Shown here piece after piece: positions 40,348 through 61,392 of a DNA stretch of 64,000 nucleotides. This stretch comes from a virus (lineage: Duplodnaviria > Caudoviricetes), in IMG/VR virus record IMGVR_UViG_3300036821_000136, positions 1 through 64,000 of that record; one strand, given 5' to 3'. Each line of letters starts with the position of its first letter. The first letter of the stretch is position 1. A model generated the notes under the pieces. That model was not told where the DNA came from, did not search any database, and saw only the letters and a program-made list of their open reading frames with translations. Both the position numbers and the translations under genes were made by a program.

Positions 40348-40374
40348 TGGTATTATGTATATATGAGCAACACG
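40348..40374 (+). promoter_or_regulatory. Repeated promoter motif (leaderless start)
   Basis: TGGTATTATGTATATATGAGCAACACG. Confidence 0.8.
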
Positions 40375-40548
40375 ACAAGCAAGACCGTGAGCACCCGCCA
40401 GTACCAGGCATCGCACGGCCGCAGCCCGCGCGGCTACGGCCAGTGGATGTTCGAGCTGCGCGGGGCCGGCGAGATCGTCACCCGCACCGGCACCTACACC
40501 GACGCCAGGAAGGCGCTGCCCGCCGGCAACTGGGTGGTGCTCCCGTAA
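40363..40548 (+). CDS. Small hypothetical protein (MSNT start)
   Basis: ATG inside the promoter motif; HGRSPRGYGQWMF. Confidence 0.7.
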   Translation: MSNTTSKTVSTRQYQASHGRSPRGYGQWMFELRGAGEIVTRTGTYTDARKALPAGNWVVLP

Positions 40549-41051
40549 TGACCAGCCGCGCCGCCTACGCCGGGATCACCTACGTGGTCCCGTGCTCGGC
40601 CCGCAAGGCCGCCGCGCCCGCCCCGGCCCGCGACCTGTACACCGGCGCGATGTTCACCCACAGCCTGGCCGCCGCCGAGGCGCTGGCCCGCTGGGACCGC
40701 CAGCAGGGCCGCGAGGCCCGGATCCTGGTCCTGAGCGCCCGGCACGGCCTGGTCACCCTCGACCAGGTGATCGCCCCCTACGACCGCAAGATCGGCGACC
40801 CCGGGTCGGTCACCCCCGCCCGGCTGGCCGGCCAGGCATGGCAGCTGGGCCTCCGCGCCGACGGCGACGGCTGGGCCCGCTCGCCCGAGGTCTACTCGCT
40901 GTGCCCCGCCGCCTATTACGACGTCCTGTCGAGCGCCCTGCAGCGGCTCGGCGTCTACCCCCAGGACTGCTACGAGGGCACCGCCGGGATCGGCGATCAG
41001 CGTCACGTCAACACCGTCTGCGGCTGGGACACCACCCCGGCCGCCGCCTGA
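40548..41051 (+). CDS. DUF6884-like protein
   Basis: VVPCSARK....PARDLYTG.MF...ILVLSARHGLV....IAPYD...GIGDQ. Confidence 0.7.
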   Translation: MTSRAAYAGITYVVPCSARKAAAPAPARDLYTGAMFTHSLAAAEALARWDRQQGREARILVLSARHGLVTLDQVIAPYDRKIGDPGSVTPARLAGQAWQLGLRADGDGWARSPEVYSLCPAAYYDVLSSALQRLGVYPQDCYEGTAGIGDQRHVNTVCGWDTTPAAA

Positions 41052-41062
41052 AGGAGAGACAA

Positions 41063-41679
41063 ATGACCACCACCAACGTCGTGCCCGTATTCGGGCCGCC
41101 CGAGACCGTCACCGTCGCCGAGCTGCGCGCCGGCGACTTCCTGATCGCCATCCCGGCGCAGGAAGGCGTCCGCGGCGTCACCGTCAATTCCGGCATCGCC
41201 GAGCTGAGCGACGACTGGAACACGTGGCGCCAGAGCACCGGCTACCGGCGGCCGAAGGTGCCCGTCCGGTCCGTCGTCATCATCGTCCGCGACCCGAAGG
41301 CGAAGCCGGTCAACCGGCCGGCCGGCTTCCTGGCCGAGGTCCGCCGCCCGCAGGCGGCGGTGTGACCGCCGCGCCCCGGCGGGCGCTGACCCCCGCCGAC
41401 GTCACCCGCCGCTACCGGGCGTTCCGCTCGGGCCGGCCGGAGGCGTGGGCGGCCGCGTCCCGCGACGGGCTGTGGACCTACGAGCGGCTGGAGATCAGCG
41501 GCACGCCGTGGGAGGCCCGGCACGTCCCGACCGGGATCGCCGGGCCCTGGTACGGCACGCTGACCGCCGCCCGCGCGGCGACCGCCGACGGCACGGCGCT
41601 GGCCGCCGTCGAGCGGATCGCGGTGCACGAGCGCGGCGGGCACGCGGCCGGGCGCGACCCCCGGTGCCTGCGCTGCTAG
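41063..41679 (+). other. Two small hypothetical ORFs (41063-41365, 41362-41679)
   Basis: First follows CTGAAGGAGAGAC; second coupled by GTGA. Confidence 0.6.
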
Positions 41680-41934
41680 CCGCGCTCGCTGTCCGGGATC
41701 ACCTCGGCCAGGTTCCCCTCCCAGCGTTTGCCGTTGATCCAGATGATGCAGTGGCGGTGCCGGGCGGCCGCCGGCGTGCCGCTGATCTCGCCAAGGTGCA
41801 CCTCCATTGCCGGGCGCTGCTCGGTCTCCCGGGCTGCCTGGTCATCGCTCATCGCTGCCTCCTGTAGTAGGACCGACGCCACATTCGAATACGTACGGAA
41901 TCGCGCCCCGACCAGCCCAGACGCGGCCGGGGCG

Positions 41935-41961
41935 TGGTACTATGTATATATGAGCAACACG
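41935..41961 (+). promoter_or_regulatory. Repeated promoter motif (leaderless start of ORF 41950-42183)
   Basis: TGGTACTATGTATATATGAGCAACACG. Confidence 0.8.
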
Positions 41962-42216
41962 GACAGGCACCCGATGACCAGGAACCAGGCCCGCACGATC
42001 GCCAGGGCGATCGACGCCGGCGCCGACGCCAGCCGCTACCACGTCGGCGGCGTGCTGCCGGACGAGGTACTCGACCAGATCGTCGACATATCCATGGCCC
42101 TCGGCTGCACCTGCCCGGCCTTCCAGCGCACCCACCCGCACCACAGCCCGGCCCGCGTCCGCCGCGGCGGCCGGCTCGTCTGACCACCACCACCGCCACC
42201 TGAAGGAGAGACCACC

Positions 42217-42855
42217 ATGACCACCGCCACCAAGAGCCGCAGCCGCCGCAAGGCACCCACCCGCGCCAGCGTCGAGGCCGCCGCCAAGCGCAAGGCCGAG
42301 CTGTTCGACAAGCTGGAGGCCTGGGAAGACGAGACCGACCAGGACACCATCGACGCCGCGGTCGCCATGTTCGCCGCGATCGACGACGGCTACTCCGACC
42401 GCAACGCGATGCTGATCGCCATGCAGGACCCGGAGGCCACGAAGGTCGCCGGCTACCGCCAGTGGCAGGACGTCGGCCGCCAGGTCGGCAGCTACCCCGA
42501 GGGCCAGGGCGGCATCACCATCGTCCGGTTCGCCGGCAGCTACAAGTCCAAGGACGCCGACGGCGCCGGTCCCTCGGCCGACTTCGGCGCCAAGCCCGCC
42601 GAGCACGACGCGGCCGCCGACGACGCCAAGGCCAAGGAGCGCAACCGGTTCGCGCTGACCACCGTGCACGACATCCGGTGGACCACCGAACTGCGCTGCG
42701 CGACCTGCGACGCCAAGATCCACCGCACCGGCTACGACAAGGCGACGAAGCGGCACACCTGGACGCACAGCGACCAGCTCAACGTCGGCCACCCCGTCGA
42801 GCTGCCCCGCCGCCCCGTCGCCGAGGACGCCGAGCAGGCCGGCACCGCCGAGTAG
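42217..42855 (+). CDS. ArdC-like N-terminal (ssDNA-binding, antirestriction-associated) domain protein
   Basis: YSDRNAMLIAMQDPEATKVAGYRQWQDVGRQV...GITI...F..TTVHDI..T. Confidence 0.75.
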   Translation: MTTATKSRSRRKAPTRASVEAAAKRKAELFDKLEAWEDETDQDTIDAAVAMFAAIDDGYSDRNAMLIAMQDPEATKVAGYRQWQDVGRQVGSYPEGQGGITIVRFAGSYKSKDADGAGPSADFGAKPAEHDAAADDAKAKERNRFALTTVHDIRWTTELRCATCDAKIHRTGYDKATKRHTWTHSDQLNVGHPVELPRRPVAEDAEQAGTAE

Positions 42856-42916
42856 ACACACACCCGACCACCGGGCGCCCGCCAAGGGCGCCCGGACCTA
42901 TCCCTGAAGGAGAGAC

Positions 42917-43650
42917 ATGACCACCACCACCCCGACCGAGGCCCGCAAGGCCGACGCCGAGCGGTACGCCGCCCGGCTCGGCCTGGACGCCGAGGCGCTG
43001 CACGCCGCCGCGATCGCCGTCTGGAGCAACCTCAACCCGCAGGCGACCGGTTTCGACGTCGCGCTGTCGGCCGCCGCCGCCGCGCTGCTCGCCGTCACCC
43101 GGGCAGCCGGCAGCCGGCAGGCCGCCGAGACCGCGCGGCTCGTCACCGCCGCCCAGCCCGGCGACCGGGAGCTGATCACCGCCGTGCTGACCGAGACCGC
43201 CGACGCCCGGGACCGGGAATCGCGCGGGCACCGCTGGACCGGCGAGCGTTTCGCCGGCGTCCGCGCCCGGCTGCGCGGCGAGGCCCGCCAGATGCGCGAC
43301 CTGGCCGGCCGGCTGGCGGCGTCGTCATGACCGCCCTCGGCGACACCCGCCGGCCCGCCGCCCGCGCGGCGGTGCTGGCGGTCCTGATCGAGCAGACCAC
43401 CGACTACCCCGGCGGCCACGAGCCGCTGACCATGAGCCGCGACCTGCTCGCCTACCGGACCGGGCTGCCCCGCACCGTCGCCGCGGCGGCCGCCGACGCG
43501 CTCGCCAAGACCGGCGCCGTGACCAGGCTGCGCGAGCGCGGGCGGGTCGTCTACTACGTGCCGCGGGCCGGGCTGGACACCGTCCCGATCGAGACCGGGC
43601 CCGTCGCCCGCGCCTACATCGACGCGGTGACCGCCGAGGGGGACCGGTGA
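42917..43650 (+). other. Two hypothetical ORFs (42917-43330; 43327-43650 wHTH-like)
   Basis: Start sequence before 42917; LAYRTGLPRTV...LAKTGAV pattern. Confidence 0.55.
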
Positions 43651-44291
43651 CGCACCAGCTGGCCCTGCGGCTGTCGCCGCTGGTCGCCTTCTACCAGGTC
43701 GACATGGCCGAGGCCGAGGACCTGCTGATCAGGTGGCGGCACCCGCTGCACCTGCCCACCGGCGAGTGCCCGTCGTGCGGCAAGCCGCACCCCGGCGGCC
43801 GGCCGTACGAGCGGCCGTTCGGGCGGCTGCCGTTCGTGATGGAGGACCGCGGCCGGGTCGCGGCGTGCGTGGTGCTCGCCTCGACGATCAACGCCAGCGT
43901 GTGCAAGGCGCGCGGCTGGCACCGCTACAACACCGTCGACCTGGCGCGGATCGCCCGGTCCCCCGACCGCCGCGACGAGAAGTGCCTGCGGGCGGTGCTG
44001 CGGATCACGCGGGAGTACCTGGCGCCGCTGTGGCTGGACACCTCGGCGAAGTGGGCGGCCCGGTCGGCGGAGCTGTGCGGCCGCCCGCAGCTCGCCGCGC
44101 TCGCCACCCAGTCGCTGCCCGGCACGCCGGGGTCCATGTACCGGTTCGACGGGTTCGAGCACATCCGCACGACCAGGGGCGCGCACGGCGGCGGCCACCA
44201 GAAGGCGAGCGCGGCCAACGCGATCGACGACGGCGCGCGCGGGCTGTGGGTCTACCCGTACCCCCGGCCGCTGCTGGCGGGCGCCGCGTAG
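43647..44291 (+). CDS. Mom-like (GNAT-fold) DNA-modification protein
   Basis: WRHPL...VDLARIAR...LRAVLR...LATQS..G..GSMYRFDGF resembles Mom-family acetyltransferase motifs. Confidence 0.5.
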   Translation: MTHQLALRLSPLVAFYQVDMAEAEDLLIRWRHPLHLPTGECPSCGKPHPGGRPYERPFGRLPFVMEDRGRVAACVVLASTINASVCKARGWHRYNTVDLARIARSPDRRDEKCLRAVLRITREYLAPLWLDTSAKWAARSAELCGRPQLAALATQSLPGTPGSMYRFDGFEHIRTTRGAHGGGHQKASAANAIDDGARGLWVYPYPRPLLAGAA

Positions 44292-44388
44292 CCCGGCGGG
44301 CCACGGCGCCGCCGCATGTATGTGCCGTGCCCGGGAACGCCGCCGCCCCCGGCGCGGTGCGCGGCGGGGGCGGGTGACGGGCGGGCGG

Positions 44389-45047
44389 TCAGCCTTCCGG
44401 CCAGCCCCACCGGGGGCGGGTCCACCGCACCATCGAGCCGACGCGGGCGTAGACCTCCGGGATGTAGAAGAACCGGTAGCGGCCGCCCGGGCAGGCGAGC
44501 GTGTGGGCCCGCTGCCCGGTGCCGTCCTGGACGTGGTCGCGGACCAGCGTCAGGCCGTGGTCGTGGCCGCGGACCGGGCAGGCCGGGAACGCCGGCGCGG
44601 TCGTGGTCGTCATCGGTCAGCCCTCCTGCCCGGCGGCGGGCGCCGCCGGGGTCTCGTTGTGCTCGGCGCAGGCCGGGCGGGGCCCGAGGCCCCGCCAGTA
44701 GCCCGCGCAGGTGCAGGGGCCGCTCATCAGGTTCGCCATCAGTGGCTCACCATCGCGCCGCGCATGCCCACGCGGGGCGAGCGCCGCCCGGGGCTGACGT
44801 AGGCGGGGGCGGACCACACGCGGCGGCCGTCGCGGACGAACCAGCGGCCGCGGTGGTAGGTCTTGCGGATCATGGTCTCTCTCCTTCAGATGTGCAGGTC
44901 GGCGCCGGTGGCGGGGTGGTACCGGGGCGGGTCGCTCAGGTCGCCCTCGACGACGGCGAAGCCGCCGCCGACGCGGGCCCACCACACGCGGTCGGTGTGG
45001 TCGTAGGTCCAGGGACCGTAGGTGTCGGCGTCGCTTTCGTGTTGCAT
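44389..45047 (-). other. Leftward operon of four very small ORFs starting at leaderless ATG 45047
   Basis: MQHESDAD...(44886-45047), start sequence at 44871-44889, 44389-44613. Confidence 0.55.
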
Positions 45048-45062
45048 ATATATAAGGTACAC
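45038..45062 (-). promoter_or_regulatory. Repeated promoter motif, minus strand
   Basis: GTGTACCTTATATATATGCAACACG. Confidence 0.75.
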
Positions 45063-45158
45063 CAACGCCGCCGTGACTTCGCCCGTTCCGGCAGGCCAGG
45101 GCACGTTTTCCGGTGTGATGACCGTCCTACGCCCAGGGGCGTCACGGGCGGCTCCACG

Positions 45159-45185
45159 TGGTATTATGTATATATGAGCAACACG
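45159..45185 (+). promoter_or_regulatory. Repeated promoter motif (leaderless start of ORF 45174-45368)
   Basis: TGGTATTATGTATATATGAGCAACACG. Confidence 0.8.
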
Positions 45186-45379
45186 ACAGCCACCGCCACC
45201 GCCACCGCCGGCCGGAGCTACACGACCGGCATGGTGCACGACGCCCGGCCGACCGGCCCCGAGGGCCAGCTGACCCAGCGGTGCGGCATGGGCCGCCGCC
45301 AGCTCGCCTACCTCGCCCCCACCGACGCCCCGGTCACCTGCAAGCGGTGCCTGGGCCTCGGCGCCTGAAGGAGACCACG

Positions 45380-45808
45380 ATGACCGACACCATCACCCGC
45401 CTGGCCGGCGAGGACCGCACCGCGTTCCTGGCCGCCGCCGCGGCCGCCGCCGACGAGTTCCTTGACGAGTCCGCCGACGCCGGCGTGACCGGCTGGCCGA
45501 CCTTCACCCACGCGGTCGTCGCGCTCGGCGAGTACATCACCGCCGTCGCCGCCGTGGCCGACTGGGGCCGGCAGCCGGTCCCGCACCGCGAGCCGGCCAT
45601 GACCTCGGCGGCCGCCGTCACCGGCACCGACCGGGACGCCCTGGCCGCCGCCGTCGCCGCCGCCGCCACCGAGTACGTCGAGGAATCTGAGGCCGAGGGC
45701 GAGGACGTGTGGCCCAGCTTCACCGCCGCCCTGCAGGACTTCGGCCTGTACCTGACCCACGGCGCCGGCGACGCCGACTGGGGCTACCTGCCAACCGCCA
45801 CCGCCTGA
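45380..45808 (+). CDS. Acidic protein made of two tandem homologous ~60-aa units
   Basis: GEDR..LAAAAAAADEF.DES...WPTFT...ADWG and GTDR..LAAAVAAAATEY.EES...WPSFT...ADWG. Confidence 0.7.
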   Translation: MTDTITRLAGEDRTAFLAAAAAAADEFLDESADAGVTGWPTFTHAVVALGEYITAVAAVADWGRQPVPHREPAMTSAAAVTGTDRDALAAAVAAAATEYVEESEAEGEDVWPSFTAALQDFGLYLTHGAGDADWGYLPTATA

Positions 45809-45842
45809 CCACCGCCAAACCGGCACTTGAAGGAGAGAGACC

Positions 45843-47478
45843 ATGACCGCACGACACGACTGGCAGCCCGGCGATTTCGCCACCTTCCCCGACAGCCGCC
45901 GCGGCCCCGACCGCACCGGCATCTACACCGGCGAGACCCGCGTCTCGACCACCCGCCTCACCGCCCTCGGCGAGGAAGTGACCCGCAAGGTGCCCGTCAC
46001 CTACGCGATGATCCTCGTCACGCCGGCCGGCGGCCTGGACCACCCCGGCCGCGGCGCCGGCTCGGTCAGCGTCGACGTGCGCAAGCTGCGCCCGGCGACC
46101 CCCGCCGAAATCACCGCCAGCGACGTCCGGCAGGGCTGGGCGACGTGCCAGGCGCGGGCCGCGGCCGCCGCGGCGTGGTGGGAGGCCGCCACCCCGGCGG
46201 TCACCTACCTGATCGAAGCGGGCTACGCCGACGGCCACGGCCAGATGGGCATGGCCATCGTGAACCTGCTGCTCGAGGCCGACCGCTACCCCGGCCGGTA
46301 CGCCTACACGCTCGACCGCCGGCACTGGGTGGTCAAGTACATGCCCGCCCGGTGGAACGCCGGCGCGACCCACCCCGCCGACCCGGCGCTGCGCGCCACG
46401 GCGGGCGGTGCGCGGTGACCGCCGACCTGACCGCCGCCGCGCTCGCCGCCGCCGCCGAGCTCGACGACGAGGCCGAGGACGCGGCCAAGGCCAAGCCCAA
46501 GCCGCGCCACCCGTGCGGGTTCTGCGCGACCGGCGACCACAACCTGTGCAAGGAGACGATCCGCAACGGGTCGCAGGCCAAGGTGGCTGTGTGGGAGTGC
46601 CCGTGCTGGCAGGCCGGGCACACCCTCGGCCGCCAGCCGCCGCTCAACCGCACCCCGCCGCGGATGGCCGCCTCGGCGATGCCGCCCCGCCCGGCCGCCG
46701 TCGTCACCGTCGACCTGCCCGGCACGTCCCCGGCCGGCCCGCCCGTGCGCCGGTCCTCGAGGCGGGCCGCGCCCTCGCCGTTCCCGGCCGGCGTGGTCAG
46801 CCCGTACGGCTTCCGCAAGGCCCTGCTCGACGCGGGCCTGGAGCCGGCGTCGTTCCGGCCGCAGACCGTCTACACGTGGGTCAAGCAGGCCGCCGCCGGC
46901 GGCACGTTCCCGGTCCGCTGGTACGCCGGCGGCGCCGAGACCGACGCGGGCGCCGACGGCGCCAAGCCCGGCGTCCCGGTCGAGCAGGCCCTCGCCTGGC
47001 ACCGGGCGGGCGGCGCCAAGTGAACGCCGCCGAGATCACCACCCCGTGCCTGGTCTGCGCGGTGCAGGCCGCGCTCAAGGACTCCGCGTTCTGGGCGGGC
47101 CGCGGCCTGAGCTGGCCAGTCGCCGAGGTCGCCGGCCACACCGCCCACAAGGCGTGCGCGTCCGAGGTCGAGCACCTGATCGCCGTCATCGGCGGCCTGG
47201 CCGTCGACGCCGCCGGGGTGCCCCGCTGGACCGCCAGCGGCAACGTGCCCCCCGACGACACCGTCGCGCTGATCATCGCCTTCGGCCTGGCCGGCGGCAT
47301 CGACGCGGTGGCGGCGTCCGCCGCCTACGCCGAGCAGACCGCCGAGGCGATCGCCGCCTACCGCCGCGAGCGCGAGCTGCAGGGCTACAGCGACGAGGAA
47401 CTGGCGCAGATGGCCGCCGCGTTCGGCCCGGGCGCCACCGTCGTCGACGCGCTCACCGGCCAGCGGATCGAGCTGTGA
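45843..47478 (+). other. Three coupled hypothetical ORFs (45843-46418, 46415-47023, 47020-47478)
   Basis: Start sequence before 45843; GTGA overlaps. Confidence 0.6.
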
Positions 47479-47927
47479 GCAGGCGCCGCCGCCGGCGCGG
47501 CGCGCTGTACCTGGTCTGCTACCACCGGCCGTTCCGGCACGCCCGCCATTACCTGGGATTCGCCTACCCCGACGACCTCGGCCGCGCCGACCCGCTGATC
47601 GTCGCGGAGGTCCGCGCCGCGCCCCAGACGCGGATCACCTGCCGGTACCTGACCGCCGCGCAGGCCGCCGGGGTCGCCTGCCGGATCGCCCAGCACCGCG
47701 CCGGGGTCGGCGCCCGGATCCTCGCCGTGATCGGCGCGGCGGGCATCGGGTTCGACGTCGTGCGGATCTGGCCGAGCGCCACCGAGCACCACGAGAAGGG
47801 CCTGAAGGAGCTGAAGAACGGCGCGCTGCTGTGCCCGCGCTGCCATCCCGGCACCCGCGCCGGCGACGTCATCACGCCGCGTACGTCGCGCCGCCCGCGC
47901 CGCCGTCAGCTCGTCCCGGCCGCCTGA
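47475..47927 (+). CDS. GIY-YIG-like endonuclease
   Basis: LYLVCY...HARHYLG...RIAQHRAG.GAR...VRIW....EK.LK...LCPRC. Confidence 0.65.
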   Translation: MSRRRRRRGALYLVCYHRPFRHARHYLGFAYPDDLGRADPLIVAEVRAAPQTRITCRYLTAAQAAGVACRIAQHRAGVGARILAVIGAAGIGFDVVRIWPSATEHHEKGLKELKNGALLCPRCHPGTRAGDVITPRTSRRPRRRQLVPAA

Positions 47928-47969
47928 CGAGTGACCGGCGGCCGTAGCCCGCCGGGCTACGGGCAGACG

Positions 47970-48021: not shown

Positions 48022-48309
48022 CTACCGGTCCCGGCCGCTCAGCACCGCCCGGGCGGCCCGCCGGTCGTCGGCGAGCGCGGCCTGCTCGGCCGGGTCGTCG
48101 AAGTCCTCGGGCCACAGCGCCGGCGCGATCGCGCAGAAGCCGAGCATGAACACGGCGGCCAGCCGGGCGGCGACGTCGCCCGCCGACAGCCAGAGGACGA
48201 CGACGGCGGCGGCCAGCAGCGCGATCGCCAGCCAGGTCCAGGCGCCCAGCGCCTGGGTCAGCAGCGCGGCGGCGACGGCGCCGGTGAGGAACGTGGTCAG
48301 CGATCGCAT
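48022..48309 (-). CDS. Small membrane protein
   Basis: MRSLTTFLTG... with three hydrophobic segments. Confidence 0.55.
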   Translation of the reverse strand: MRSLTTFLTGAVAAALLTQALGAWTWLAIALLAAAVVVLWLSAGDVAARLAAVFMLGFCAIAPALWPEDFDDPAEQAALADDRRAARAVLSGRDR

Positions 48310-48681
48310 GCGCGCAGTGTAACACCGGCGTGACGGTGCGGAGGCGGGTCGCGGGCCGGCCCCCGGGGGCACCGTGCACTGGGCTCCCTGATAGGCGTGG
48401 GGGCCGGCCCGGCCGGGCGGCCCGGAGGTTGCGGCCGGGTGCGCAGGCATCCTGCGGAAGCGGCCGGGGGCACCGGACGCCCGGACACGGCCAGGATAGC
48501 GGGCGGGGACGGCGGCGGCCGGCCAGGCCCGGGCGTTGGGCTGGCCGGCCGCCAGTGGCGTCGCCCTGCGTAGTAGTACACAGGCGGTGCCGGCAAGATT
48601 ACGCTGCGCGACCCGCCGCGTCCAGTGTGCCCGAGGGCACAGCACCGGACACGTTTTCGGGAGCCGGCACCTGACCTGGGC

Positions 48682-48708
48682 TGGTATTGTATATATATAA
48701 GCAACACG
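48682..48708 (+). promoter_or_regulatory. Repeated promoter motif (leadered variant)
   Basis: TGGTATTGTATATATATAAGCAACACG followed by CTGAAGGAG. Confidence 0.8.
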
Positions 48709-48729: not shown

Positions 48730-49476
48730 ATGACGAACCAGTACCCCGGCCAGTGCGGGACCTGCGGCCAGCGGGTCGAGGCCGGCGAGGGCACGGTCAC
48801 GAAGGTCCGCGGCCGGTGGACCCCGTTCCACGCGGCCGGCCAGTGCCCGGAGAACACCGAGGCGGTCGAGCAGGCCGAGGCCGTCCTGGCCAGCGCCGAG
48901 GTCGGCGACATGCTGGAGCGCCAGTCGCGTGACCGGCACGCCCGGGCCGCCGCCGACCAGCCGCGCCCCAACCGGTACGGCGGGACCTGCGGCGCCTGCG
49001 GCGCCTGGGTCGACGAGGGCGAGGGCACGGCCGTCAAGGTGGCCGGCAGCTGGACCGCCCGCCACATCGGCGAGTGCCCGGTGCCGGCGCCGGTCGGCAT
49101 CTACCGCGACCCCGAGGGCACGATCTGGCTGGTCAAGGAGTCCCGCGGCCAGAAGGACGTGCCGGTCGAGCAGCGCCGCCGGTACGCCAAGAAGATGATC
49201 GAGTCCGCGGCCGCCCGGTTCACCGAGGGCGGCGACTCGGTGCGCTACGACTGGGAGATCGTGCGCGGCGCGGTCTACCGGCTGACCGAGGACATGCGCG
49301 TCCCGCTGGACGACGAGCAGGTGACCGCGCTGATGATCGCCACCGGCAAGTGCATCGTCTGCGACCACGCGATGTGGGCCGAGAAGACCCTGCGGCGGGC
49401 CAAGGAGACCGGCGTGATGGTCGGGCCGGTCTGCGTCAAGAGCTTCGCGCCGGCCCGGTTCCGCCAGGACGCCTGA
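48730..49476 (+). CDS. Zn-finger repeat protein with C-terminal DUF6011-like CxxC...GPVC domain
   Basis: NxYxGxCxxCGxxVxxGEG twice; GKCIVC...GPVC. Confidence 0.65.
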   Translation: MTNQYPGQCGTCGQRVEAGEGTVTKVRGRWTPFHAAGQCPENTEAVEQAEAVLASAEVGDMLERQSRDRHARAAADQPRPNRYGGTCGACGAWVDEGEGTAVKVAGSWTARHIGECPVPAPVGIYRDPEGTIWLVKESRGQKDVPVEQRRRYAKKMIESAAARFTEGGDSVRYDWEIVRGAVYRLTEDMRVPLDDEQVTALMIATGKCIVCDHAMWAEKTLRRAKETGVMVGPVCVKSFAPARFRQDA

Positions 49477-49585
49477 CTCCCGCCCGCGAGGCGGCGGCCC
49501 CCCGGCGACGGGGCGGCCGTCGCTTTCGTGTGCCGGACGGCACACCGCCCGGACGCTTGTTCGAGCGCCGCCGCCTGACCTGCGG

Positions 49586-49612
49586 GGGTATTCTGTATAT
49601 ATAAGCAATACG
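49586..49612 (+). promoter_or_regulatory. Repeated promoter motif (leadered variant)
   Basis: GGGTATTCTGTATATATAAGCAATACG. Confidence 0.75.
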
Positions 49613-51620: not shown

Positions 51621-51676
51621 CCCCGCCAAACCTAGGAAGGACCTGCCCGGAACATATTTCCCTGATATATATCGCG

Positions 51677-51736: not shown

Positions 51737-52129
51737 ATGGACAGCCCAGCGGTGCCGGGCAGGGTGGTTTCATCGCGGATCCTGGACGGCCCGGTCCGGC
51801 TGTGGTTCGCGGTCACCGACGCCGACGGCAGGATCATGGGCGCGGCCCCGATGCCCGTGCCGATGCCCTGGCTGTGGCGGGGCGGGCAGCTGTGCCTGGC
51901 CTACACCGGGCTCCGGATCGTCATGACCCGGCCGGGCCGGTACAGCGACGGGCTGATCTGCGCGGTGACCGAGGGCGAGCAGGCAGCCCCGTTCGTGCCG
52001 ATGTGGCAGGTCAGTCTCGGCAAGCCCGAGGACATGCGGGCCGGCGACGACGTGTGGATCGGCGACGGCGTGATCGTGATCATCCCGGAGGGGCAAACTG
52101 CCCTGCCCGCGGCGATCAGGCCCGCCTGA
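51737..52129 (+). CDS. Hypothetical protein
   Basis: TAGGCT -10-like hexamer 7 nt before ATG 51737. Confidence 0.5.
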   Translation: MDSPAVPGRVVSSRILDGPVRLWFAVTDADGRIMGAAPMPVPMPWLWRGGQLCLAYTGLRIVMTRPGRYSDGLICAVTEGEQAAPFVPMWQVSLGKPEDMRAGDDVWIGDGVIVIIPEGQTALPAAIRPA

Positions 52130-54178: not shown

Positions 54179-55341
54179 GGCTGCCGCCCCACGTAGGACA
54201 TCCAGGCCACGGCAACGTTGTTGAACATGGTCAGCGGCGCCCGCCCGAACGGCAGGTCCCGGTCCCAGCGCAGCGACGACCACCGGTCGGTCGCGGCGTA
54301 GACCACGGTGCGGAGCTCCTGCAGGGCGAGCGGCTCGCCCAGGCAGCGGTGCGGCCCGGACGCGAACGCCGGGTGCTGCTGGCCCAGGCCGGGGCGGCGC
54401 GGGTCGAGCAGGCCGGGGTCGGGGAACCTGGCCGGGTCGCGGCCGGCTGACCACAGCGACCCGGTGACCATCTGGCCGGCCGGGATCTCCACGTCGCCGA
54501 ACGTGACGGGCCGGGTGGTCACCGCCCCGATCGTCGGGAACGGCGGAGCGAGCCGCAGGCACTCGGCGATCGCGCCGTCGCGCAGCCCGGGGTCGGCGCG
54601 CAGCTCGTCCCAGCCGCCCCACTCGGCCAGCAGCAGCAGGGTGCTGGCGATCGCCGCGTGCGTCGTGTGGATCCCGGCGGCGACCAGCCCCCAGAGATAC
54701 CCGATGATGTCCTCGTCGGACAGGTCGGCCCCGTCGACCTGGTAGCCGGCCGCCTGGGCGGCGATCAGCTCGTCGACGAGGCCGCCGGCCGGGCGGCGGC
54801 GGCGCTCGGCGAGCAGGTCGGCGAAGAACGCCGCCTTGTCGGTCTGCACGATGGTCTGGTGGACCGCGGCCGACCCGGCCGCGAACTCGGCCAGCCACGC
54901 GCCGAACTGCTTGTTCGCCGCCAGGTCGAGACCCATGATCTGGCAGATCACCGCCCCGGGCAGCGGCGCCGCCAGCTCGGCGACGACCTCGAACGGGCCG
55001 CCGTGCCGCTCGATGTCATCCATGAGCTGGTCGGCCAGGGCGCGGATCCCGGGCGCCAGGGCGGCCAGCGCGGTCCGGCTGAACGGGTCGCGGACCAGGC
55101 GCCGCAGGTCGTGGTGCCGCGGCCCGTCGGCGACCCACATCACGTGGTCGTTGGGCTCCCTCGAGCGGGGGTCGGCGAACCCCTGGGAGAAGCACACGGC
55201 GTCCCGGGCGAGCCGGTCGACGTCGTCGTAGCTGAACACCTGCCAGCTGCGGCGGTCCGGGTCGTAGAACGGCCTGGTGCCGGCGTCGAGGGGCAGCCCT
55301 GGCGGGCCGAGCAGTCGCTGATCGGGCAGTACGGGGGTCAT
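54175..55341 (-). CDS. Cytochrome P450
   Basis: DGPRHHDLRRLV, I-helix AAGIHTT, ExxR (ECLR), RDPARFPDP, heme motif FASGPHRCLG. Confidence 0.95.
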   Translation of the reverse strand: MTPVLPDQRLLGPPGLPLDAGTRPFYDPDRRSWQVFSYDDVDRLARDAVCFSQGFADPRSREPNDHVMWVADGPRHHDLRRLVRDPFSRTALAALAPGIRALADQLMDDIERHGGPFEVVAELAAPLPGAVICQIMGLDLAANKQFGAWLAEFAAGSAAVHQTIVQTDKAAFFADLLAERRRRPAGGLVDELIAAQAAGYQVDGADLSDEDIIGYLWGLVAAGIHTTHAAIASTLLLLAEWGGWDELRADPGLRDGAIAECLRLAPPFPTIGAVTTRPVTFGDVEIPAGQMVTGSLWSAGRDPARFPDPGLLDPRRPGLGQQHPAFASGPHRCLGEPLALQELRTVVYAATDRWSSLRWDRDLPFGRAPLTMFNNVAVAWMSYVGRQP

Positions 55342-55442
55342 GGCGTGTGCGCCGCCTTCCGGTAGGAGTCTGGGCAGCAGCACTCTAACAGGCGGTAACC
55401 GGATCGTTCCGCAGCGCAACGACGCGATTCGCGATTCGCGAT

Positions 55443-56788
55443 TCACCAAACGCTAAAGGGCCCGGGCGGCGCTGCCGCCGGGGCCCTGCCGATAGCCAAT
55501 CCTCCTTTCCCGGGCGATGCTAACGCGGCGTCGCCGGGGTCGTCCGGCTCTTCGCGGCCGACGGCGCGGCGCAGCGGGTGGTGCCGGCCGTACAGCCGGG
55601 TGACCCGCAGGTCGCCGTCGTCGCCGGCGATCTTGCGCGCCTTGCGGCGGGCGGCCAGCCGGGTCGAGGCGTGCACGCCGAACGTCATCACCCGCGGCGC
55701 GCTGCCCAGCAGGATCAGCGTGCCGTCACGGTCGATCGCCACGACCGGCGCGGGGCCGGGCCAGGTGACGCGCACCTGCCAGTTCCTCGTCCGGGGCATC
55801 ACACGTCCTCGGGATGGGCACCGGCGGCGAGGCCCTGCAGGTACTTCTCGCCCTCCAGGTCGCGCAGGATGCCGAGCGCCGCCGCCGAGCTGGCGGCCAG
55901 CTCGGGGCAGAGCGCGATCAGCGCGGCCAGGGCGTCGTCGGCGGTCTCGATGTACATCAGTTGACCGCCCGGGCGATCTGCTCGTCGGTCACCCAGGTCC
56001 GGCACCGGCACTGGCGCCGGCACATGGCGAACACGTAGGCGACCGGGGCCCGGCAGCGCAGGCACAGCATCACGGCGTCCCTCCTGACCTGCCGCGTCAC
56101 CGGCAGGGTTCTCGTTTTGCGACCCGGTTTGAGGCGCCCGGGCCGACTTGTAATTTTTGTAACTGTGTTTCAGATATTGGCCGGCGGGGCGCCGTGCCGG
56201 GCGATCTGCGCGGCGACCATCTTGCGGCTGGCGGTCATCGCGTCCTGCAGCCGGGCCTCGGCCCGGGCGCCGGAGAACTGGCTGGTGACGCGGGTCGACC
56301 GGTCGACGCCGCCGGCGGCGGTGAGCAGGTACTGGACGACGTAGAACTCGGGCAGGGTGTGGCCCTCGCGGACGTGCCGGTAGACGCGCAGGCGGAAGAT
56401 CCGGCCGTCGTCGGCGTAGCAGGTCAGCGTCTCGACGTCGGTGGTGCGGCGGCGGGGGATCCGGTGGTTGGCCATGTCAGGCGCCGTCGTCGCAGGACCG
56501 GCAGAGCCGGTCGTAGTCGCTCATCCGCGCGTCGTCGTCGCAGACCGGGCGGCCGCAGCCGACGCACAGGCCGTCGGCCGGGCCGCTGCACAGGTGGCAC
56601 GACTCCGCGGCGTGGGCCAGGACGGCGGCCAGGTTGGCGACCGGGAAGGTGCCGTCGGCGGTGCGGACGGCGACCAGGTAGCCGCTGGCGTCCTTGCCGT
56701 AGGCGAGCACCGGGGGCCCGTTCAGCCGGCCGCCGGTGGCGGCGATCCAGGTGACTGCCCACGCGGTGTCGGTGGTGTCGGTGGCCAT
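55443..56788 (-). other. Leftward operon of small hypothetical ORFs (56477-56788, 56170-56475, 55443-55802 and others)
   Basis: Driven by the minus-strand promoter motif at 56810-56836 with a start sequence. Confidence 0.55.
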
Positions 56789-56809
56789 GGGTCTCTCTCC
56801 TTCAGTTAC

Positions 56810-56836
56810 CGTGTTGCGTATATATACATGGTACCA
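56810..56836 (-). promoter_or_regulatory. Repeated promoter motif, minus strand
   Basis: TGGTACCATGTATATATACGCAACACG. Confidence 0.8.
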
Positions 56837-56872
56837 TACGTGGGGCGTCCCGGCGCCATCGTCCCTGGCCGG

Positions 56873-56899
56873 GGGTACCGTCTATATATGGGCAACACG
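56873..56899 (+). promoter_or_regulatory. Repeated promoter motif
   Basis: GGGTACCGTCTATATATGGGCAACACG. Confidence 0.7.
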
Positions 56900-56927
56900 C
56901 CCGCCTGACCGCCTGAAGGAGAGACCG

Positions 56928-57416
56928 ATGACCCACCACCCGCACGAGCCCGCCGCCAACCAGCTCGGCCCCGACCTGGAAGCCACCTCGACGACGCCGG
57001 CCTGGGTCGGCGCCCCCCGCCCGGCCCGCGGCGACTACACCGTCGGCTGGCGCATCGAGGTCGCCGCGGTCAGCCCGGAGCACGCCGCCAGCGCCGCCCT
57101 GGCCGCCCAGCGCGGCCGGGGATCGCGCGCCACCGTGTTCACCGTCTCCGACGGCTCCAGCACGTGGCGCGTCGACCTGACCGAGGGCACCACCGAGCTG
57201 CTGGCGGGCGGGCCGCCGGAGCCCGGCGGGCTACTGCACGTGTTCACGCTGCGGATCCCGTCGGAGGCGGTGACCGACAGCCCGGCGGGGTGGGGGACGG
57301 CGCTGATCGGCCAGATCCGCCGGCTGATGGCCGACGCCGGGATCGGCGACTACGAGCTGTGGCTGTCGACCGTCGGGCGGGGCACCGTCGAGGACGTCGC
57401 TCCCGAGGACGTGTGA
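56928..57416 (+). CDS. Hypothetical protein
   Basis: Follows CTGAAGGAGAGAC. Confidence 0.6.
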   Translation: MTHHPHEPAANQLGPDLEATSTTPAWVGAPRPARGDYTVGWRIEVAAVSPEHAASAALAAQRGRGSRATVFTVSDGSSTWRVDLTEGTTELLAGGPPEPGGLLHVFTLRIPSEAVTDSPAGWGTALIGQIRRLMADAGIGDYELWLSTVGRGTVEDVAPEDV

Positions 57417-57458
57417 CCGGCGTCCCGCCACCGGGCTACCCCCGCCCGCCCGCGCCGG

Positions 57459-57485
57459 GGGTACCATGTATATATAAGCAACACG
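57459..57485 (+). promoter_or_regulatory. Repeated promoter motif (leadered variant)
   Basis: GGGTACCATGTATATATAAGCAACACG then CTGAAGGAGAGAC. Confidence 0.8.
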
Positions 57486-57508
57486 GCCACTGAAGGAGAG
57501 ACACCACC

Positions 57509-58045
57509 ATGATCGACACCGCCGCCCTCCCGCTTGAGGACCGGTACGCCCGCTACGCCGCCAACGAGGCCGCCCTCCGCGCCGTCGACGACGTCGTGGT
57601 CCTGCTCGGCGACAAGACCCCCGGCAGGCTGTACACCATCGTCAAGACCAACCCGACCACGCTGATCCTCGCGCCCGCCGACGGCGGCCTGCAGGTCAAG
57701 GCGCACCGGTCGCTGGTCGAGGACGCGCCCGCCGGATCGGCCGCCAAGGTCGCCGCCGCCGCCGCGACCGTCCTGCCGCACCAGCCGCTCGGCGCGCTGG
57801 TCCGCCTCAAGGCCACCGCCCCGCCCGCCGGCGGGATCAACCCCGGCGAGGTCTGCGTCGTGATCATCGACAAGGGTGACCGCGTCCACGTCGCCAAGAT
57901 CGGCGGCGTGCAGACCGCCCGCGGCGACGCCTACGCCCGCCCGCCCCGCGCGCTGGTCGAGGCCGTCAGCCCCGGCGACGTGCTGGTGCCCGCCGAGGTC
58001 AAGCCGGTCGCCGGCGCCCGCCCGTCACGCGGCCGGAGGTCATGA
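57509..58045 (+). CDS. Hypothetical protein with small beta-barrel (SH3/KOW-like) domains
   Basis: DDVVVL....GRLYTIVKTNPTTLILAPADGG.QVKA...LV.DAP. Confidence 0.6.
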   Translation: MIDTAALPLEDRYARYAANEAALRAVDDVVVLLGDKTPGRLYTIVKTNPTTLILAPADGGLQVKAHRSLVEDAPAGSAAKVAAAAATVLPHQPLGALVRLKATAPPAGGINPGEVCVVIIDKGDRVHVAKIGGVQTARGDAYARPPRALVEAVSPGDVLVPAEVKPVAGARPSRGRRS

Positions 58046-60113
58046 TGCAGTACCGGTTCACGTGCGCCCAGCACAACGTGGTGCTGGGCGGCTGCCCCGA
58101 GTTCTACCCCGCCGCCGAGGACGCGGCCGGCGGGGTCGCCGAGTGGGTCATCGACCTGTCCGACATGTCGTGCAGCGCCGACGACGCCTCCGACAACGGC
58201 AGCGGCTGCTCCGCCACCTGGCAGATCACCGCCGCCGGGGTCAGCCTCGCCGCGTTCACCCCCGCCGAGACGGCCGGGCTGTCCGACGCGCTCGCCGTCG
58301 CCGAGAACGCCGACGAGCACCTGACCCGCGACCAGCTCGCCGCGGCCGCCAAGCTCGACGCGGCGTTCGCGGCGGCCCCCGGGCCGCCCGCCGACCGCTA
58401 CCCGGCGCCCGACCCCGCCGGCACCGACTGGGACGCCTACCCGCCGCTGAGCGACGAGACCGCCTGCCTGGTCATGCAGGAGATCCTGGTCGACACCGAG
58501 TTCCTGTGGCTGACGGCGGTCAACCCGCCCAGCGGCGAGCGCGCCGAGGTCACCATCGTCGACGCGGTCACCACGTTCGCGGGCAACTGCTGGGACGACC
58601 AGCACGACGGCGGCGCCCACCGGCAGAACCTGATCGACGCCAACCGGCTGCTGGGCTGGCTGGACCGCCCCGACCTGCGCGACGACTACAACGACGTGCA
58701 CAGCCTGGTCGGCGACGACGTGCCCGAGCCCGAGCGCTGGGCGAGCCGGCCATGAGGGCGGGCGTGTCGAGCAGCGGCCGCTGGTGGGTCAGCATGGGCC
58801 CCGTCGGCTGGCTGATCTACGCGGTCTGCTGGCTGGCCGGGGCGATACTGATCATCGCCGCCCGGCTGGTCTGGGCGCTGGCGCTGGGGGTCGCCTGGCT
58901 CGCCCGCGCCGGCTGGCGCGCCGCGACCACGAGAGGACAAGACCGATGACCCGCGCCTACGACACGATGCCGGGCGTCCCGGCCGCCGGCCACATCGCCG
59001 GCGGCGCCTGGCACCCCGGCCCCTCCCACCACTGCACCAAGTGCGAGCCGCCGCCGCGCCCGGGCACCGCCGACGCGGCCCGCTGGTACCTGCAGCGCGA
59101 CCTGTCCTACGGCCTGGCCGCCGACGCCACGATCGCCGACGCCCGCCGGTACAACGGCCGCTACGTCTACACCCCCGACGGCTGCGCGTGGGTGCTCGCC
59201 GCCCGCGCCACCGGGCGGCTGGTCTGGTCGTTCGGCCGGGCGACCCGCGCCGAGCAGCACCTGGCCCACGACCGGCGCACGCCGACGGCGACCCGCGTGG
59301 ACCCCGACGCGGTCCACGCCGGCGACCGGATCGCCTGGGGCACCGCGCGGGGCGGGCGCCTGGCCGGCTCCGGTACGGTCGAGTTCGCCACCGCCGAGGC
59401 GGTGCACGTGATCAGCGGCGCCGGCTACCACTACCCGATCGCCTGGACCAGGGTCACCGGCCACTGGCCGGCGGCCGCCTGAAGGAGAGAGACATGACCG
59501 ACACCGCCGCGGCGATGCGCCGCCCCAGGATGCGCCGCGCCCTGCTCGCGCACCTGTTCGACAACCACGGGGTCATGCTGACCCGCGCCGACTCCGCCCG
59601 CGAGTCGCTGGGCCAGCTCGCCGAGATGGACCCGTGCGGCGCCGCGCCGCCGCTGGGCGACGCCGACCTCGGCTACGACGCCGACGGCTGGCGGGTCCGC
59701 CGGTCGGGCGGGACGGACTTCCGGGTCACCGACTGCTGCGCCAAGGACGCCACCACCGCCGACGGCGACGACGAGGGCACCATCGTGTGCCGCCGCTGCA
59801 AGCAGCCGGCCGGCGAGTCGCTCGCGCTGCCCCCGATGCTGCCCTACCTGGCGCCGGACGGTCACGTGCTGGTCCGGGCCGACACCGCGAAGGAGAGAGA
59901 CCGGTGAGCGGCTTCTACGCGATCCGGCAGGCCCGCACGCGGGTGATCGGGTCGCGGCTGATGACCCGCGAGCAGGCCGACCGGGAGGTCGCGGTGTGGG
60001 CGGCCGAGATCGGCCCGGCCCGCGTGCTGCCCGCCACCCCCGACCTGGCGCACGCGGTGCGCTACTACGACCAGGCCATCCTGGTGCCCGCGCTGAAGGG
60101 CGAGCCCTGGTGA
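58042..60113 (+). other. Coupled small hypothetical ORFs (58042-58755, 58946-59482, 59494-59907 and others)
   Basis: ATGA/GTGA overlaps and start-sequence copies at about 59479 and 59887. Confidence 0.55.
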
Positions 60114-60373
60114 CCGATGCCAGCGGCAGGCGCCGCCCGAAGTTCCGCAGCGCGGGGTCACCCGACCGGCTGACCGGCACGGTGACCCGCTGGGACCCCG
60201 GCGCCAGCTACGGGATGATCACCGGCGACGACGGCGGCAGCTACTTCCTGTCCGCCGCCGACCTGCCGCGCGGCCGCGAGAGCCTGGCCGTGGGGACCGC
60301 CGTCACCTTCACCAGCGGCGCCCCGGCACCCGGCAAGCGGTACCCGCGCGCCCGCCAGGCCCGGCCCGCATGA
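60110..60373 (+). CDS. Cold-shock-domain (OB-fold) protein
   Basis: LTGTVTRWD...SYGMITGDDG..YFL...L...L.VG..VTF. Confidence 0.7.
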   Translation: MTDASGRRRPKFRSAGSPDRLTGTVTRWDPGASYGMITGDDGGSYFLSAADLPRGRESLAVGTAVTFTSGAPAPGKRYPRARQARPA

Positions 60374-60664
60374 TCACCGGCTACCAGGCCGGGACGGCCC
60401 GGCCGGAGCCGTGGCTGCCCGCCGGCCGGCACGCGGTCGCGGTGGTGCGGCTGGCGCACGGCGTCGAGCGGCCCGAGCCGGCCGCGGTGTGCGGCACGTG
60501 GATCGAGCACGCCAAGCCGGGCGGGCCGCTGGTGATCTCCTGCCCGGCCTGCGCGCGGGTCCTGGGCGCGCTACGGGCTACTCAGTAGCAGGCGAGCGGC
60601 CGTAGCCCGGCGGGCCACGGGACCGGGGTCACGGCCGCCCGGGGCGCCACCGGGCGGCCCCATG

Positions 60665-60691
60665 CCGTATTATGGATATATGAGGAACACG
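60665..60691 (+). promoter_or_regulatory. Repeated promoter motif (leaderless start of ORF 60680-60958)
   Basis: CCGTATTATGGATATATGAGGAACACG. Confidence 0.75.
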
Positions 60692-61365
60692 ACAGACACC
60701 ATGACCGCCCGGCACTGCTCGGGCTGCGCCCAGGTCGACCCCATCGACGACGGCGACGGCTACACCGACTGCTGCAACGAGTGGATCTGCGACGGCAACG
60801 GCGCCGACCGGTGGACCGTCGGGACCCTCACGTTCGACGAGGCCGGCCGCGAGGTCCGCACCGTCACCGGCGAGCTGCTCGCCTGCTGCGGCGGCCAGGC
60901 CGACAAGCTGGCCGCCGCCCAGGCCCCCGGCCGCATCGCGCTGTGCCGCGCGCTCTGACACCACCACCTGAAGGAGAGACCGACATGACGACCCCCGACA
61001 CCAGCCGGACCCACCGGTTCCCGCCGACCGGCTGCGTCAACCAATGGGCCGCCGACCACGACCACGCCGACTGCTGGGCCGCCTTCCTGGCCTTCCACGA
61101 AGCGCCGGCCGGGCTGGGCATCGACGAGTTCTACCGCTGGCTGGAGACGACCCCGCACGCCGCCGACATCACCCCCGACGGCGATGGGTTCCTGGTGACC
61201 TGCCGCCGCGGCTGCGCGCTGGGCACCAGCGCGCGCCAGAGCGACCGGGCGGGCGCCGGCCGGCGGGTCCGGCAGCACCGGATCTGCACGACTCCGCTGA
61301 CCGCCTGAGTGTGCCCGACGGCACACCGGCCGGGTACCGGCCAGGGCGAGTTCCGGCGCCCCGGC

Positions 61366-61392
61366 TGGTACTATGTATATATGAGCAACACG
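61366..61392 (+). promoter_or_regulatory. Repeated promoter motif
   Basis: TGGTACTATGTATATATGAGCAACACG then CTGAAGGAG. Confidence 0.8.

Follow-up and report, generated by a model that had tools for sequence, protein, structure and literature searches.

Eleven near-identical copies of a 27-nucleotide block form a probable set of co-regulated promoters in the genome of a very GC-rich phage

The element described here is a block of 27 nucleotides (nt) that is found eleven times between positions 40,348 and 61,392 of the window, as we call the whole stretch of DNA that was analysed, which comprises positions 1 to 64,000 of a 108,246-bp IMG/VR virus record (IMGVR_UViG_3300036821_000136; Caudoviricetes; CheckV completeness 97%). 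Its closest described counterparts are the primary sigma factor (sigma-A) promoters of mycobacteria and the repeated regulatory sites of mycobacteriophages. In M. tuberculosis, a TANNNT -10 element is found at 73% of the primary start sites, the -35 region is not conserved, and TGN marks the stronger promoters (Cortes 2013, PMC3898074), and in mycobacteria RTG at +1 is required for leaderless translation and suffices for it (Shell 2015, PMC4633059). The Cluster O mycobacteriophages (Corndog and others) have eight to nine strongly predicted host-type promoters in AT-rich intergenic gaps, several of which are predicted to be leaderless, with +1 at the start codon's first base; a separate 17-bp dyad is found throughout these genomes, with 34 copies in Corndog, 14 of them between open reading frames (ORFs) and the others within them (PMC4351075). 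Multi-copy asymmetric regulatory sites have been described in the Cluster A mycobacteriophages (PMC9283540, PMC6550527).

The GC content of the record is 75%, with 73-82% across the whole window, and the phage is ascribed to a very GC-rich actinomycete as its putative host. Promoters of the T7 class are 23 bp long and extend from -17 to +6. In the Thermus phages phiYS40 and P23-45, middle and late promoters have an extended -10 element, lack a -35 element and give leaderless transcripts; neither an invariant initial transcribed sequence nor an upstream CRP-like dyad is reported for these promoter classes. A dyad near -55 is a feature of class I CRP-type promoters and of the Ogr/Delta-activated late promoters of P2 and P4, and actinomycetes possess a CRP of their own.

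Copies of the block were searched for with its 18-nt core, GTATATATRAGCAACACG, allowing up to three mismatches, and 100 dinucleotide-preserving shuffles served as the control. Eleven matches were found in the window (core starts at 40357+, 41944+, 45038-55(-), 45168+, 48691+, 49595+, 56810-27(-), 56882+, 57468+, 60674+ and 61375+), compared with none in the 100 shuffles. Together with the nine bases upstream of it, the core makes up the 27-nt block where an earlier, sequence-only reading of the window had listed eleven copies, all of which were recovered. A 28-nt weight matrix scored the eleven copies at 41-60 bits and the best shuffle at 6.3 bits, and the sole other forward site, at 27910-27936(-) with 22 bits, was the weaker copy that the same reading had reported. 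All eleven copies were confined to 40.3-61.4 kb, with none in the other 87 kb of the record. Each was intergenic, in a genome with an intergenic share of 9%, and was oriented with the next gene, with a predicted 5' untranslated region of either 0-2 nt or 21-40 nt. Stretches with at least eight A/T per 10 nt numbered 23 in 108 kb, and 12 of the 23 were motif copies, the weak one included, which bears out the description of the copies as among the very few AT-rich patches of this sequence. The consensus was (T/G)GG-TAyyrT-GTATAT-AT(G/A)-AGCAACACG. Identity in the flanks beyond the block was about 0.31, the random level for sequence of 75% GC, except upstream in the 48691/49595 pair and downstream in a common ribosome-binding site (RBS). 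Because the flanks are no more alike than random sequence of this composition, the block is a sharply bounded island under its own constraint rather than a remnant of larger duplications.

In the -10 hexamer, the first T, the A and the final T were fixed, and the inner three positions varied (TATTAT, TACTAT, TACCAT, TATTGT, TATTCT and TACCGT). TANNNT was in register in ten of the eleven copies, and in the eleventh a TACCTT was displaced by 2 nt along with its ATG. No -35 element was conserved among the copies. The block had been proposed to contain an extended -10 element, and while the TANNNT behaviour was upheld, TGN stood directly before the -10 in only six copies, the others having GGG (three copies), CCG (one) or a shifted element (one). 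Between the -10 and the start, the AT-rich GTATAT was nearly invariant, with GGATAT in copy 10. TATATAT was considered as the actual -10 and was rejected because no register of it yields TANNNT.

The element TGNTANNNT was found 12 times in 108 kb, and all 12 occurrences were intergenic. Six of these belong to motif copies, one is the palindromic complement of copy 7, and five head units that lack the motif, at 32791(+), preceding a gene read as Cro-like, at 32978(-), upstream of an HTH_36 gene, at 55382(-), before a P450 operon, at 48316(-) and at 18170(+). At the site at 48316(-) (48309-48324), TGTTACACT is followed after 6 nt by the ATG of a gene for 95 amino acids (aa) at 48022-48309(-). 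The -10-to-ATG geometry matches that of the motif copies, and 48309-48324(-) is predicted to be a leaderless promoter outside the motif class.

From the geometry of the block, transcription would start at the A of the ATG or ATA that lies 7 nt after the -10 (TAnnnT at -12 to -7). An ATG at this predicted +1 was in frame with the gene in five of the six copies with ATG (40363, 41950, 45174, 60680 and 61381), and a gene caller blind to the motif picked the motif ATG as the start in three of these five, and also picked the shifted ATG of copy 3. In copy 3 the ATG is, after the 2-nt shift, likewise at the predicted +1 and opens the gene, so this copy appears to have undergone a compensating shift that preserves the spacing between -10 and start. 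No Shine-Dalgarno sequence is possible before a motif ATG because the promoter occupies the upstream sequence. Given the predicted start, these copies have the geometry of a leaderless mRNA, with ATG at the first transcribed base and no Shine-Dalgarno sequence. Four copies have ATA at +1 (48697, 49601, 56821 and 57474), followed by a 26-35-nt leader with an RBS, and in exactly these four the gene is reached through a leader only. Because RTG at +1 is needed in mycobacteria, the ATA copies would be unable to start leaderless translation. In the proposed mechanism, ATG at +1 would give a leaderless mRNA that is translated from its first base, with MSNT or MRNT at the N-terminus, and ATA would give a 26-35-nt leader with translation from the generic RBS of the phage, CTGAAGGAGAGA. 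This general RBS has 18 copies genome-wide, before start codons on both strands (for example at 22605(-), 27421(-), 29231(-), 42200, 51046, 59479, 60968 and 63792). It is 12 nt long, far longer than a usual Shine-Dalgarno sequence, and brings to mind the start-associated sequences of Cluster K mycobacteriophages. The sequence ACTGAAGGAG, which follows several copies, was considered as a part of the cassette and rejected, as it belongs to CTGAAGGAGAGA.

Relatives were compared at the protein level, with N-termini as a proxy for promoter conservation, and orthologues were located on contigs of 88 kb, 14.9 kb and 3.7 kb. The orthologue of the copy-2 gene on the 88-kb JGI contig (P0033) starts with MSNTDT, compared with MSNTDR here. 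On the same contig, the orthologue of the copy-10 gene (P0026) begins MRNTTAITARH and has no internal Met, so it can start only at the motif ATG. Three Logan gene calls, which are over-extended upstream, read MPYYGYMRNT, corresponding to ATG CCG TAT TAT GGA TAT ATG AGG AAC ACG; because they read PYYGY across the promoter, they are compatible with conservation of the copy-10 -10 element and spacer in at least two sequence variants. The proposal that transcription starts about 6-7 nt downstream of the -10 is backed by the leaderless ATG geometry, the joint shift in copy 3 and these orthologue N-termini. The start of the copy-1 gene (40363-40386) has a 12-nt near-duplication, ATGAGCAACACG and then ACAAGCAAGACC, and its orthologue P0017 (82% identical) starts at the second unit with MSKT..., which hints that the cassette was grafted onto an older, similar start.

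A second element was found upstream of the block. Six of the ten crude matches to TGTGA-N6-TCACA in the genome lay just upstream of motif copies, and in a matrix scan the seven best box sites of the genome were all upstream of motif copies and were helically phased. With leave-one-out matrices, a box was found upstream of nine of the eleven promoters (empirical p ≤ 0.015 each), and the divergent pair at 56.8 kb (copies 7 and 8) had no dyad box by this scoring. The box centres, at -52.5, -52.5, -54.5, -54.5, -63.5, -63.5, -64.5, -72.5 and -74.5, correspond to one helical face at three successive turns. Two boxes are centred at -54.5, that of copy 9 (57412-57427) and the weaker one of copy 10 (60618-60633), and two at -63.5, that of copy 5 (48626-48641, TGTGC-N6-GCACA) and that of copy 11 (61310-61325). 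Those of copy 1 (40303-40318, TAGGA-N6-TCACA), copy 6 (49529-49544) and copy 2 (41868-41883) are centred at -52.5, -64.5 and -74.5, and a single box at 45114-45129 is common to the divergent copies 4 and 3, at -52.5 of the former and -72.5 of the latter.

An upstream TGTGA-N6-TCACA-like dyad on one helix face, as in class I CRP-type promoters, is thus present in nine of the eleven promoters, and the layout is that of an activator-dependent promoter without a -35 element. Because nine of the eleven carry the phased dyad, the promoter set is probably one regulon, and in this respect the copies look like the co-regulated set that had been proposed. The eleven promoters would probably be switched together by an activator that binds the dyad and that may be of host or phage origin. 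A 107-aa winged-helix protein of the phage has a sub-threshold match to HTH_Crp_2.

What the DNA itself shows is where the copies lie and how they are oriented, the TANNNT pattern, the geometry of the ATG and the association with the box. The reading that we favour is that the 27-nt block is likely to represent eleven phage promoters at which the host RNA polymerase initiates with its primary sigma factor. As host sigma-A promoters, they would open easily in GC-rich DNA through the -10 element, the AT-rich spacer and the AT-rich start, and in a genome of 75% GC the TATATAT from -5 to +2 most likely helps the strands to separate. Among the phage proteins there was no match to the Sigma70_r2 domain and none to the T7-type polymerase domain PF00940, a search in which the control genomes also gave no match, so that it had no positive control. 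None of 21 larger proteins (319-1163 aa, including all of at least 405 aa) was polymerase-like by Pfam or PHROGs. A WhiB, Lsr2 or sigma factor encoded by the phage was considered and rejected, as there were no domain matches. A reading of the 61381/61411 protein as sigma region-4-like found no support from Pfam, a PDB sequence search or the ESM Atlas, and the similarity of the 61411 protein to the 57509 protein is in a 48-aa segment that is separate from the sigma-like reading.

Several points weigh against promoters read by the host polymerase. The start site, the leaderless translation and the identity of the polymerase are all deduced from sequence, the actinobacterial host is itself putative, the TG of an extended -10 is limited to six copies, and the two copies at 56.8 kb have no dyad box. 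Sigma-A has no need of a fixed sequence from +4 to +12, and the most unusual part of the block is left unexplained. In addition, the PF00940 search lacked a positive control, and because many of the phage proteins are orphans there is room among them for what may be a divergent transcription factor or polymerase. These last two points also favour the reading that the block is the promoter of an enzyme or factor specified by the phage, whether a divergent RNA polymerase of the single-subunit type or a sigma-like protein, as do the length of 27 nt, the near-identity and the reach past +1, all of which resemble promoters of phage polymerases. However, the variable and fixed positions match TANNNT exactly, the same TGNTANNNT element heads genes without the motif, no Sigma70_r2 match was found among the phage proteins, and the four proteins of more than 750 aa are assigned to or resemble a tape measure, a portal, a MuF/protease fusion and a large lectin-like protein. 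A polymerase or factor of the phage's own is therefore considered very improbable.

The half of the block downstream of the start calls for separate consideration. The sequence AGCAACACG at +4 to +12 was invariant among the copies, confirming that conservation runs to +12, beyond the needs of sigma recognition, and the 8-mer GCAACACG was found nine times in the genome, exclusively within the motif. The 5' 60 nt of the predicted transcripts had no common structure (z-scores of -0.2 to +2.1 relative to shuffles), the first 12 nt were unpaired in the centroid fold of nearly all copies, and Rfam gave no match at gathering score in the 64-kb window. The sequence-only reading had suggested a shared operator or RNA 5'-end signal, a suggestion that was left unsupported, as the search for RNA structure was negative and no protein that binds the site was identified. 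A palindromic operator was rejected: the reverse strand scored 17-29 bits, mainly from the self-complementary TATATA, and a symmetric dimer site is unlikely because positions that are fixed in the right half vary in the left. Two readings of the downstream half are put forward, tentatively and with about equal weight. It may be that AGCAACACG is an intrinsic initial-transcribed element, keeping the 5' end unstructured and escape efficient. It may also be that -6 to +12 (GTATAT-ATRAGCAACACG) is an asymmetric operator at which a repressor or regulator of the phage acts on all eleven start sites and holds off an accessory regulon, for example in a lysogen, a possibility that concerns the downstream half only and is compatible with host-read promoters. 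In keeping with an operator are the near-invariance over 18 bp that are not needed for sigma recognition, the restriction of GCAACACG to the motif, the lack of the downstream half in the other TGNTANNNT promoters of the phage, which makes this half class-defining, and a partial copy at 63744-63760 that retains the downstream half without a -10. The weak copy lies upstream of a candidate DNA-binding protein gene (27456-27800), the phage has an integrase and is taken to be temperate, and helix-turn-helix (HTH) candidates are encoded, namely HTH_36, GntR and a weak Crp-like match by Pfam and Cro-like and Xis-like proteins as read from translations. For the three HTH proteins that the sequence-only reading had named (27456, 33008 and 61381), the HTH segments are likewise read from translations, and Pfam gave no match. 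On the other hand, no protein has been linked to the site, the site is a poor palindrome with a left half that varies where the right half is fixed, only one partial copy lies away from promoters, and promoter strength could explain the conservation equally well. The more specific proposal is rather doubtful, that -6 to +12 is dedicated to control, as an asymmetric operator at the start site or an RNA 5' tag of 12 nt, that it sets apart one class of phage transcription units and that, together with the phased dyad, it forms a two-input switch for about 50 accessory genes in which ATG or ATA at +1 sets leaderless or leadered translation.

An RNA tag and a role in recombination are both less likely than an operator or an intrinsic element. 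As a 5' tag through which a phage or host factor controls the stability, translation or processing of the regulon's transcripts, the first 12 nt of the RNA (AUGAGCAACACG or AUAAGCAACACG) would be expected to act in the transcript, and the same 12 nt are indeed kept whether they are coding, in leaderless units, or untranslated, in leadered ones, and are predicted to be unpaired in almost all copies. This is nevertheless improbable: there is no structure, covariation or Rfam family, no RNA-binding protein was identified, the tag of copy 3 is displaced by 2 nt relative to the start, and mycobacterial leaderless translation requires no downstream element (PMC4633059). The repeats could instead be mainly evolutionary, serving as short homologies for module exchange or duplication through the RecT/YqaJ of the phage, as proposed for the promoter-stem-loop cassettes of T4-type phages. 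The copies do lie at module boundaries, RecT and a YqaJ exonuclease are encoded, the proteins are mosaic relative to the 88-kb relative, and the near-duplication of 12 nt at the copy-1 gene start, with an orthologue that begins at the second unit, would fit such a history. However, every copy is oriented with its gene, which is expected of a promoter and not of a recombination site, 27 nt is short, mosaicism is universal in phages and was compared here at the protein level, and there is no consistent flanking stem-loop, GC-rich hairpins being found upstream of some copies only. Recombination as the main role of the repeats is thus unlikely.

Of the copies with ATG at +1, copy 1 (40348-40374, +) reads TGG-TATTAT-GTATAT-ATGAGCAACACG, and its ATG at 40363 opens a predicted leaderless ORF of 61 aa (MSNT...) in a unit of four genes, a DUF6884 protein among them. 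Copy 2 (41935-41961, +; TGG-TACTAT) has an ATG at 41950 that opens a 77-aa ORF (MSNT...) and heads five genes, which include an ArdC-N-like protein and a small winged-helix protein. Copies 3 and 4 are divergent. Copy 3 (45038-45064, -) heads four small genes and lacks an in-register -10, its TACCTT and its ATG (45047) both lying 2 nt downstream with the -10 to +1 spacing preserved, and the ATG at 45174 of copy 4 (45159-45185, +; TGG-TATTAT) opens a 64-aa ORF (MSNT...) in a unit of six genes. Copy 10 (60665-60691, +) is the most diverged, with CCG-TATTAT-GGATAT-ATGAGGAACACG, and the gene (MRNT...) is read in frame from its ATG at 60680. In copy 11 (61366-61392, +; TGG-TACTAT), the ATG at 61381 is in frame with an RBS-led ATG at 61411, so that two starts are possible, and a long run of plus-strand genes follows to about 66.1 kb. 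Copy 8 (56873-56899, +; GGG-TACCGT) has no dyad box, and its ATG at +1 is followed by a mini-ORF of six codons (MGNTPA-stop), then an RBS and then a 162-aa gene.

The four copies with ATA at +1 are copy 5 (48682-48708, +; TGG-TATTGT), with a 33-nt leader and RBS before a single 248-aa Cys-rich gene and then a terminator-like hairpin; copy 6 (49586-49612, +; GGG-TATTCT), with a 26-nt leader and four genes that include an ATP-dependent DNA ligase; copy 7 (56810-56836, -; TGG-TACCAT), divergent from copy 8 and likewise without a dyad box, with a 33-nt leader; and copy 9 (57459-57485, +; GGG-TACCAT), with a 35-nt leader and about eight genes to 60588. The weak divergent copy (27910-27936, -; 22 bits) lies upstream of a short upstream ORF and a 114-aa protein gene. 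In this region (27801-27921, -), the weak copy is followed by an RBS and an upstream ORF of 24 codons, the stop of which overlaps the ATG of the 114-aa gene (ATGA), an overlap that suggests translational coupling of the two. The 114-aa protein (27456-27800) may be Xis/MerR-like as read from its translation; a Pfam scan of it gave no match. The partial copy at 63744-63760 (-), TATATATCGGCAACGCG, has no -10 and faces the opposite way from the plus-strand genes around it. Decay or rearrangement of a cassette may account for it, or it may be a downstream element that is separable. The plus-strand gene just downstream of it has a leader that retains GGTGTACC and an RBS (63744-63830).

Altogether the probable regulon comprises about 50 mostly orphan genes in 11 units over about 26 kb. 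Only the ArdC-N-like protein, the ATP-dependent DNA ligase and the DUF6884 protein could be named, and PHROGs named none of ten further regulon proteins. Because so few products could be named, the labels "early" and "anti-defence" that had been attached to the regulon remain guesses. The copies had also been described as heading unrelated small genes, and this is mostly the case, except for one paralogous pair (57509-58045 and 61411-61923). These are the first genes of copies 9 and 11, they have a 48-aa segment in common with 42% identity, and they represent the only paralogy among the 56 proteins of the region. The 248-aa protein (48730-49476) is monocistronic, with a motif promoter of its own and a terminator-like hairpin; it carries two zinc-ribbon-like CxxC...H...C repeats near the N-terminus and a cluster of Cys at the C-terminus, and its ten homologue matches are from uncultured sequences only. 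In the comparison with the 88-kb relative, protein identity was at least 90% in the modules that follow copies 2, 10 and 11, the copy-5 gene was 65% identical, and six other first or second genes had no partner at 90% or more. This protein mosaicism is compatible with module exchange and does not prove it. A scan of viral, genome and metagenome contigs for the motif gave single scattered matches, mostly in low-GC DNA, or none. When the 248-aa protein and an alignment of it, the ligase, RecT and the portal were used as queries, only three loci came up: a 14-kb structural fragment, a 36.8-kb contig with a portal of 22% identity, and an unrelated 102-kb provirus (G001) that has RecT/YqaJ and one DUF6884 gene in common with the phage and lacks the motif.

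The genome is that of a tailed phage, with a Mu-type portal, a large terminase, a capsid protein and a tape measure with NlpC/P60 and SLT domains, and it also encodes a MuF/protease fusion, RecT and a YqaJ exonuclease, a DnaB-type helicase, a ParB-like protein, an N6-methylase and a DpdA-like transglycosylase (Pfam/PHROGs). Because a tyrosine integrase domain is present at about 75.2-75.7 kb of the record, the phage is probably temperate. A gene call based on codon usage gave a minus-strand block that extends from about 32.5 kb leftwards, over the record ends, to the structural genes at 108-77 kb, and a plus-strand block at 33-77 kb. No near relative was found in the INPHARED phage collection, in which the best portal match was to Arthrobacter phages at 38% identity. 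A consensus promoter and terminator scan found no -35/-10 promoters and no excess of terminators. A homologue of queuine tRNA-ribosyltransferase (DpdA-like) at 8898-9965(-) (phrog_7068, E = 5e-77) suggests that the phage DNA carries a 7-deazaguanine modification. Two further AT-rich patches were observed: the T-rich TCTTTGATTTTGATCTTTGGTTTTT at 31899-31923, between the helicase operon and the HTH_36 gene, which may be an origin or a terminator, and GAACATATTTCCCTGATATATATCGC at 51650-51674, upstream of the gene at 51764-52129, which has only the TATATAT core in common with the motif.

The phage promoters resemble the sigma-A promoters of M. tuberculosis and M. smegmatis (PMC3898074, PMC4633059) in having TANNNT, no -35 element and TGN in a subset, as well as a purine start about 7 nt downstream and an ATG at +1 that gives a leaderless mRNA. 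In contrast to the cellular promoters, which have nothing in common from -6 to +12, the eleven phage copies have 18 further bases that are almost invariant, and their start region is extremely AT-rich for a genome of 75% GC. Cluster O phages are alike in their reuse of host-type promoters in AT-rich gaps, in predicted leaderless starts and in a separate dyad repeat. However, their promoters are of the -35/-10 type and are not near-identical past +1, and no set distance from promoters has been reported for their dyad, whereas the dyad here is helically phased upstream of promoters. Stoperators, which are 13-14 bp long, are likewise asymmetric, oriented with transcription and present in many copies in the temperate actinophages of Cluster A, where one repressor could control many units. 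They are spread genome-wide and the bound repressor stops elongation, whereas here every full copy is at a promoter start and no repressor was identified; none of the eleven lies inside an operon away from promoters, all overlapping the predicted start, and only one partial copy is found elsewhere.

With the T7 class the block shares a long, near-identical sequence before many operons and conservation across the start, and it differs in that no phage polymerase gene was found here and that the variable positions follow the host -10 rule. The Thermus phage classes have a similar -10 or extended -10 without a -35 and many transcripts that begin at the start codon, in a host of a different phylum. 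Class I CRP and P2/P4 late promoters are alike in lacking a -35 element and in having upstream of the start a TGT...ACA dyad that keeps to one helical face (about -52, -63 or -74); the box halves here, however, are often degenerate, and two promoters have no box. Reused host-type promoters, AT-rich gaps, leaderless starts and multi-copy asymmetric sites are already known in actinophages. What sets this phage apart is that 18 bp are nearly invariant across the start, that a phased dyad lies upstream and that one cassette toggles between ATG and ATA.

The finding does not represent a new principle of phage biology, and apart from the conservation 12 bases into the transcript this would be a fairly ordinary phage regulon. 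The fixed sequence from +4 to +12 raises the question of what constrains the initial transcribed sequence in a promoter of the host polymerase. The motif marks an orphan regulon of about 50 genes that can be studied as a unit, and leaderless and leadered expression from the same promoter would offer a natural comparison of translation modes. If the model holds, these copies would be a near-identical, strong and -35-independent set of promoters for very GC-rich actinomycetes, with natural variation only at the inner -10 bases, in the upstream activator box and how far away it lies, and in the choice of ATG or ATA at +1. If the two-input control element should prove true, the block would represent an undescribed modular cassette in actinophages that joins a promoter to a mode of translation.

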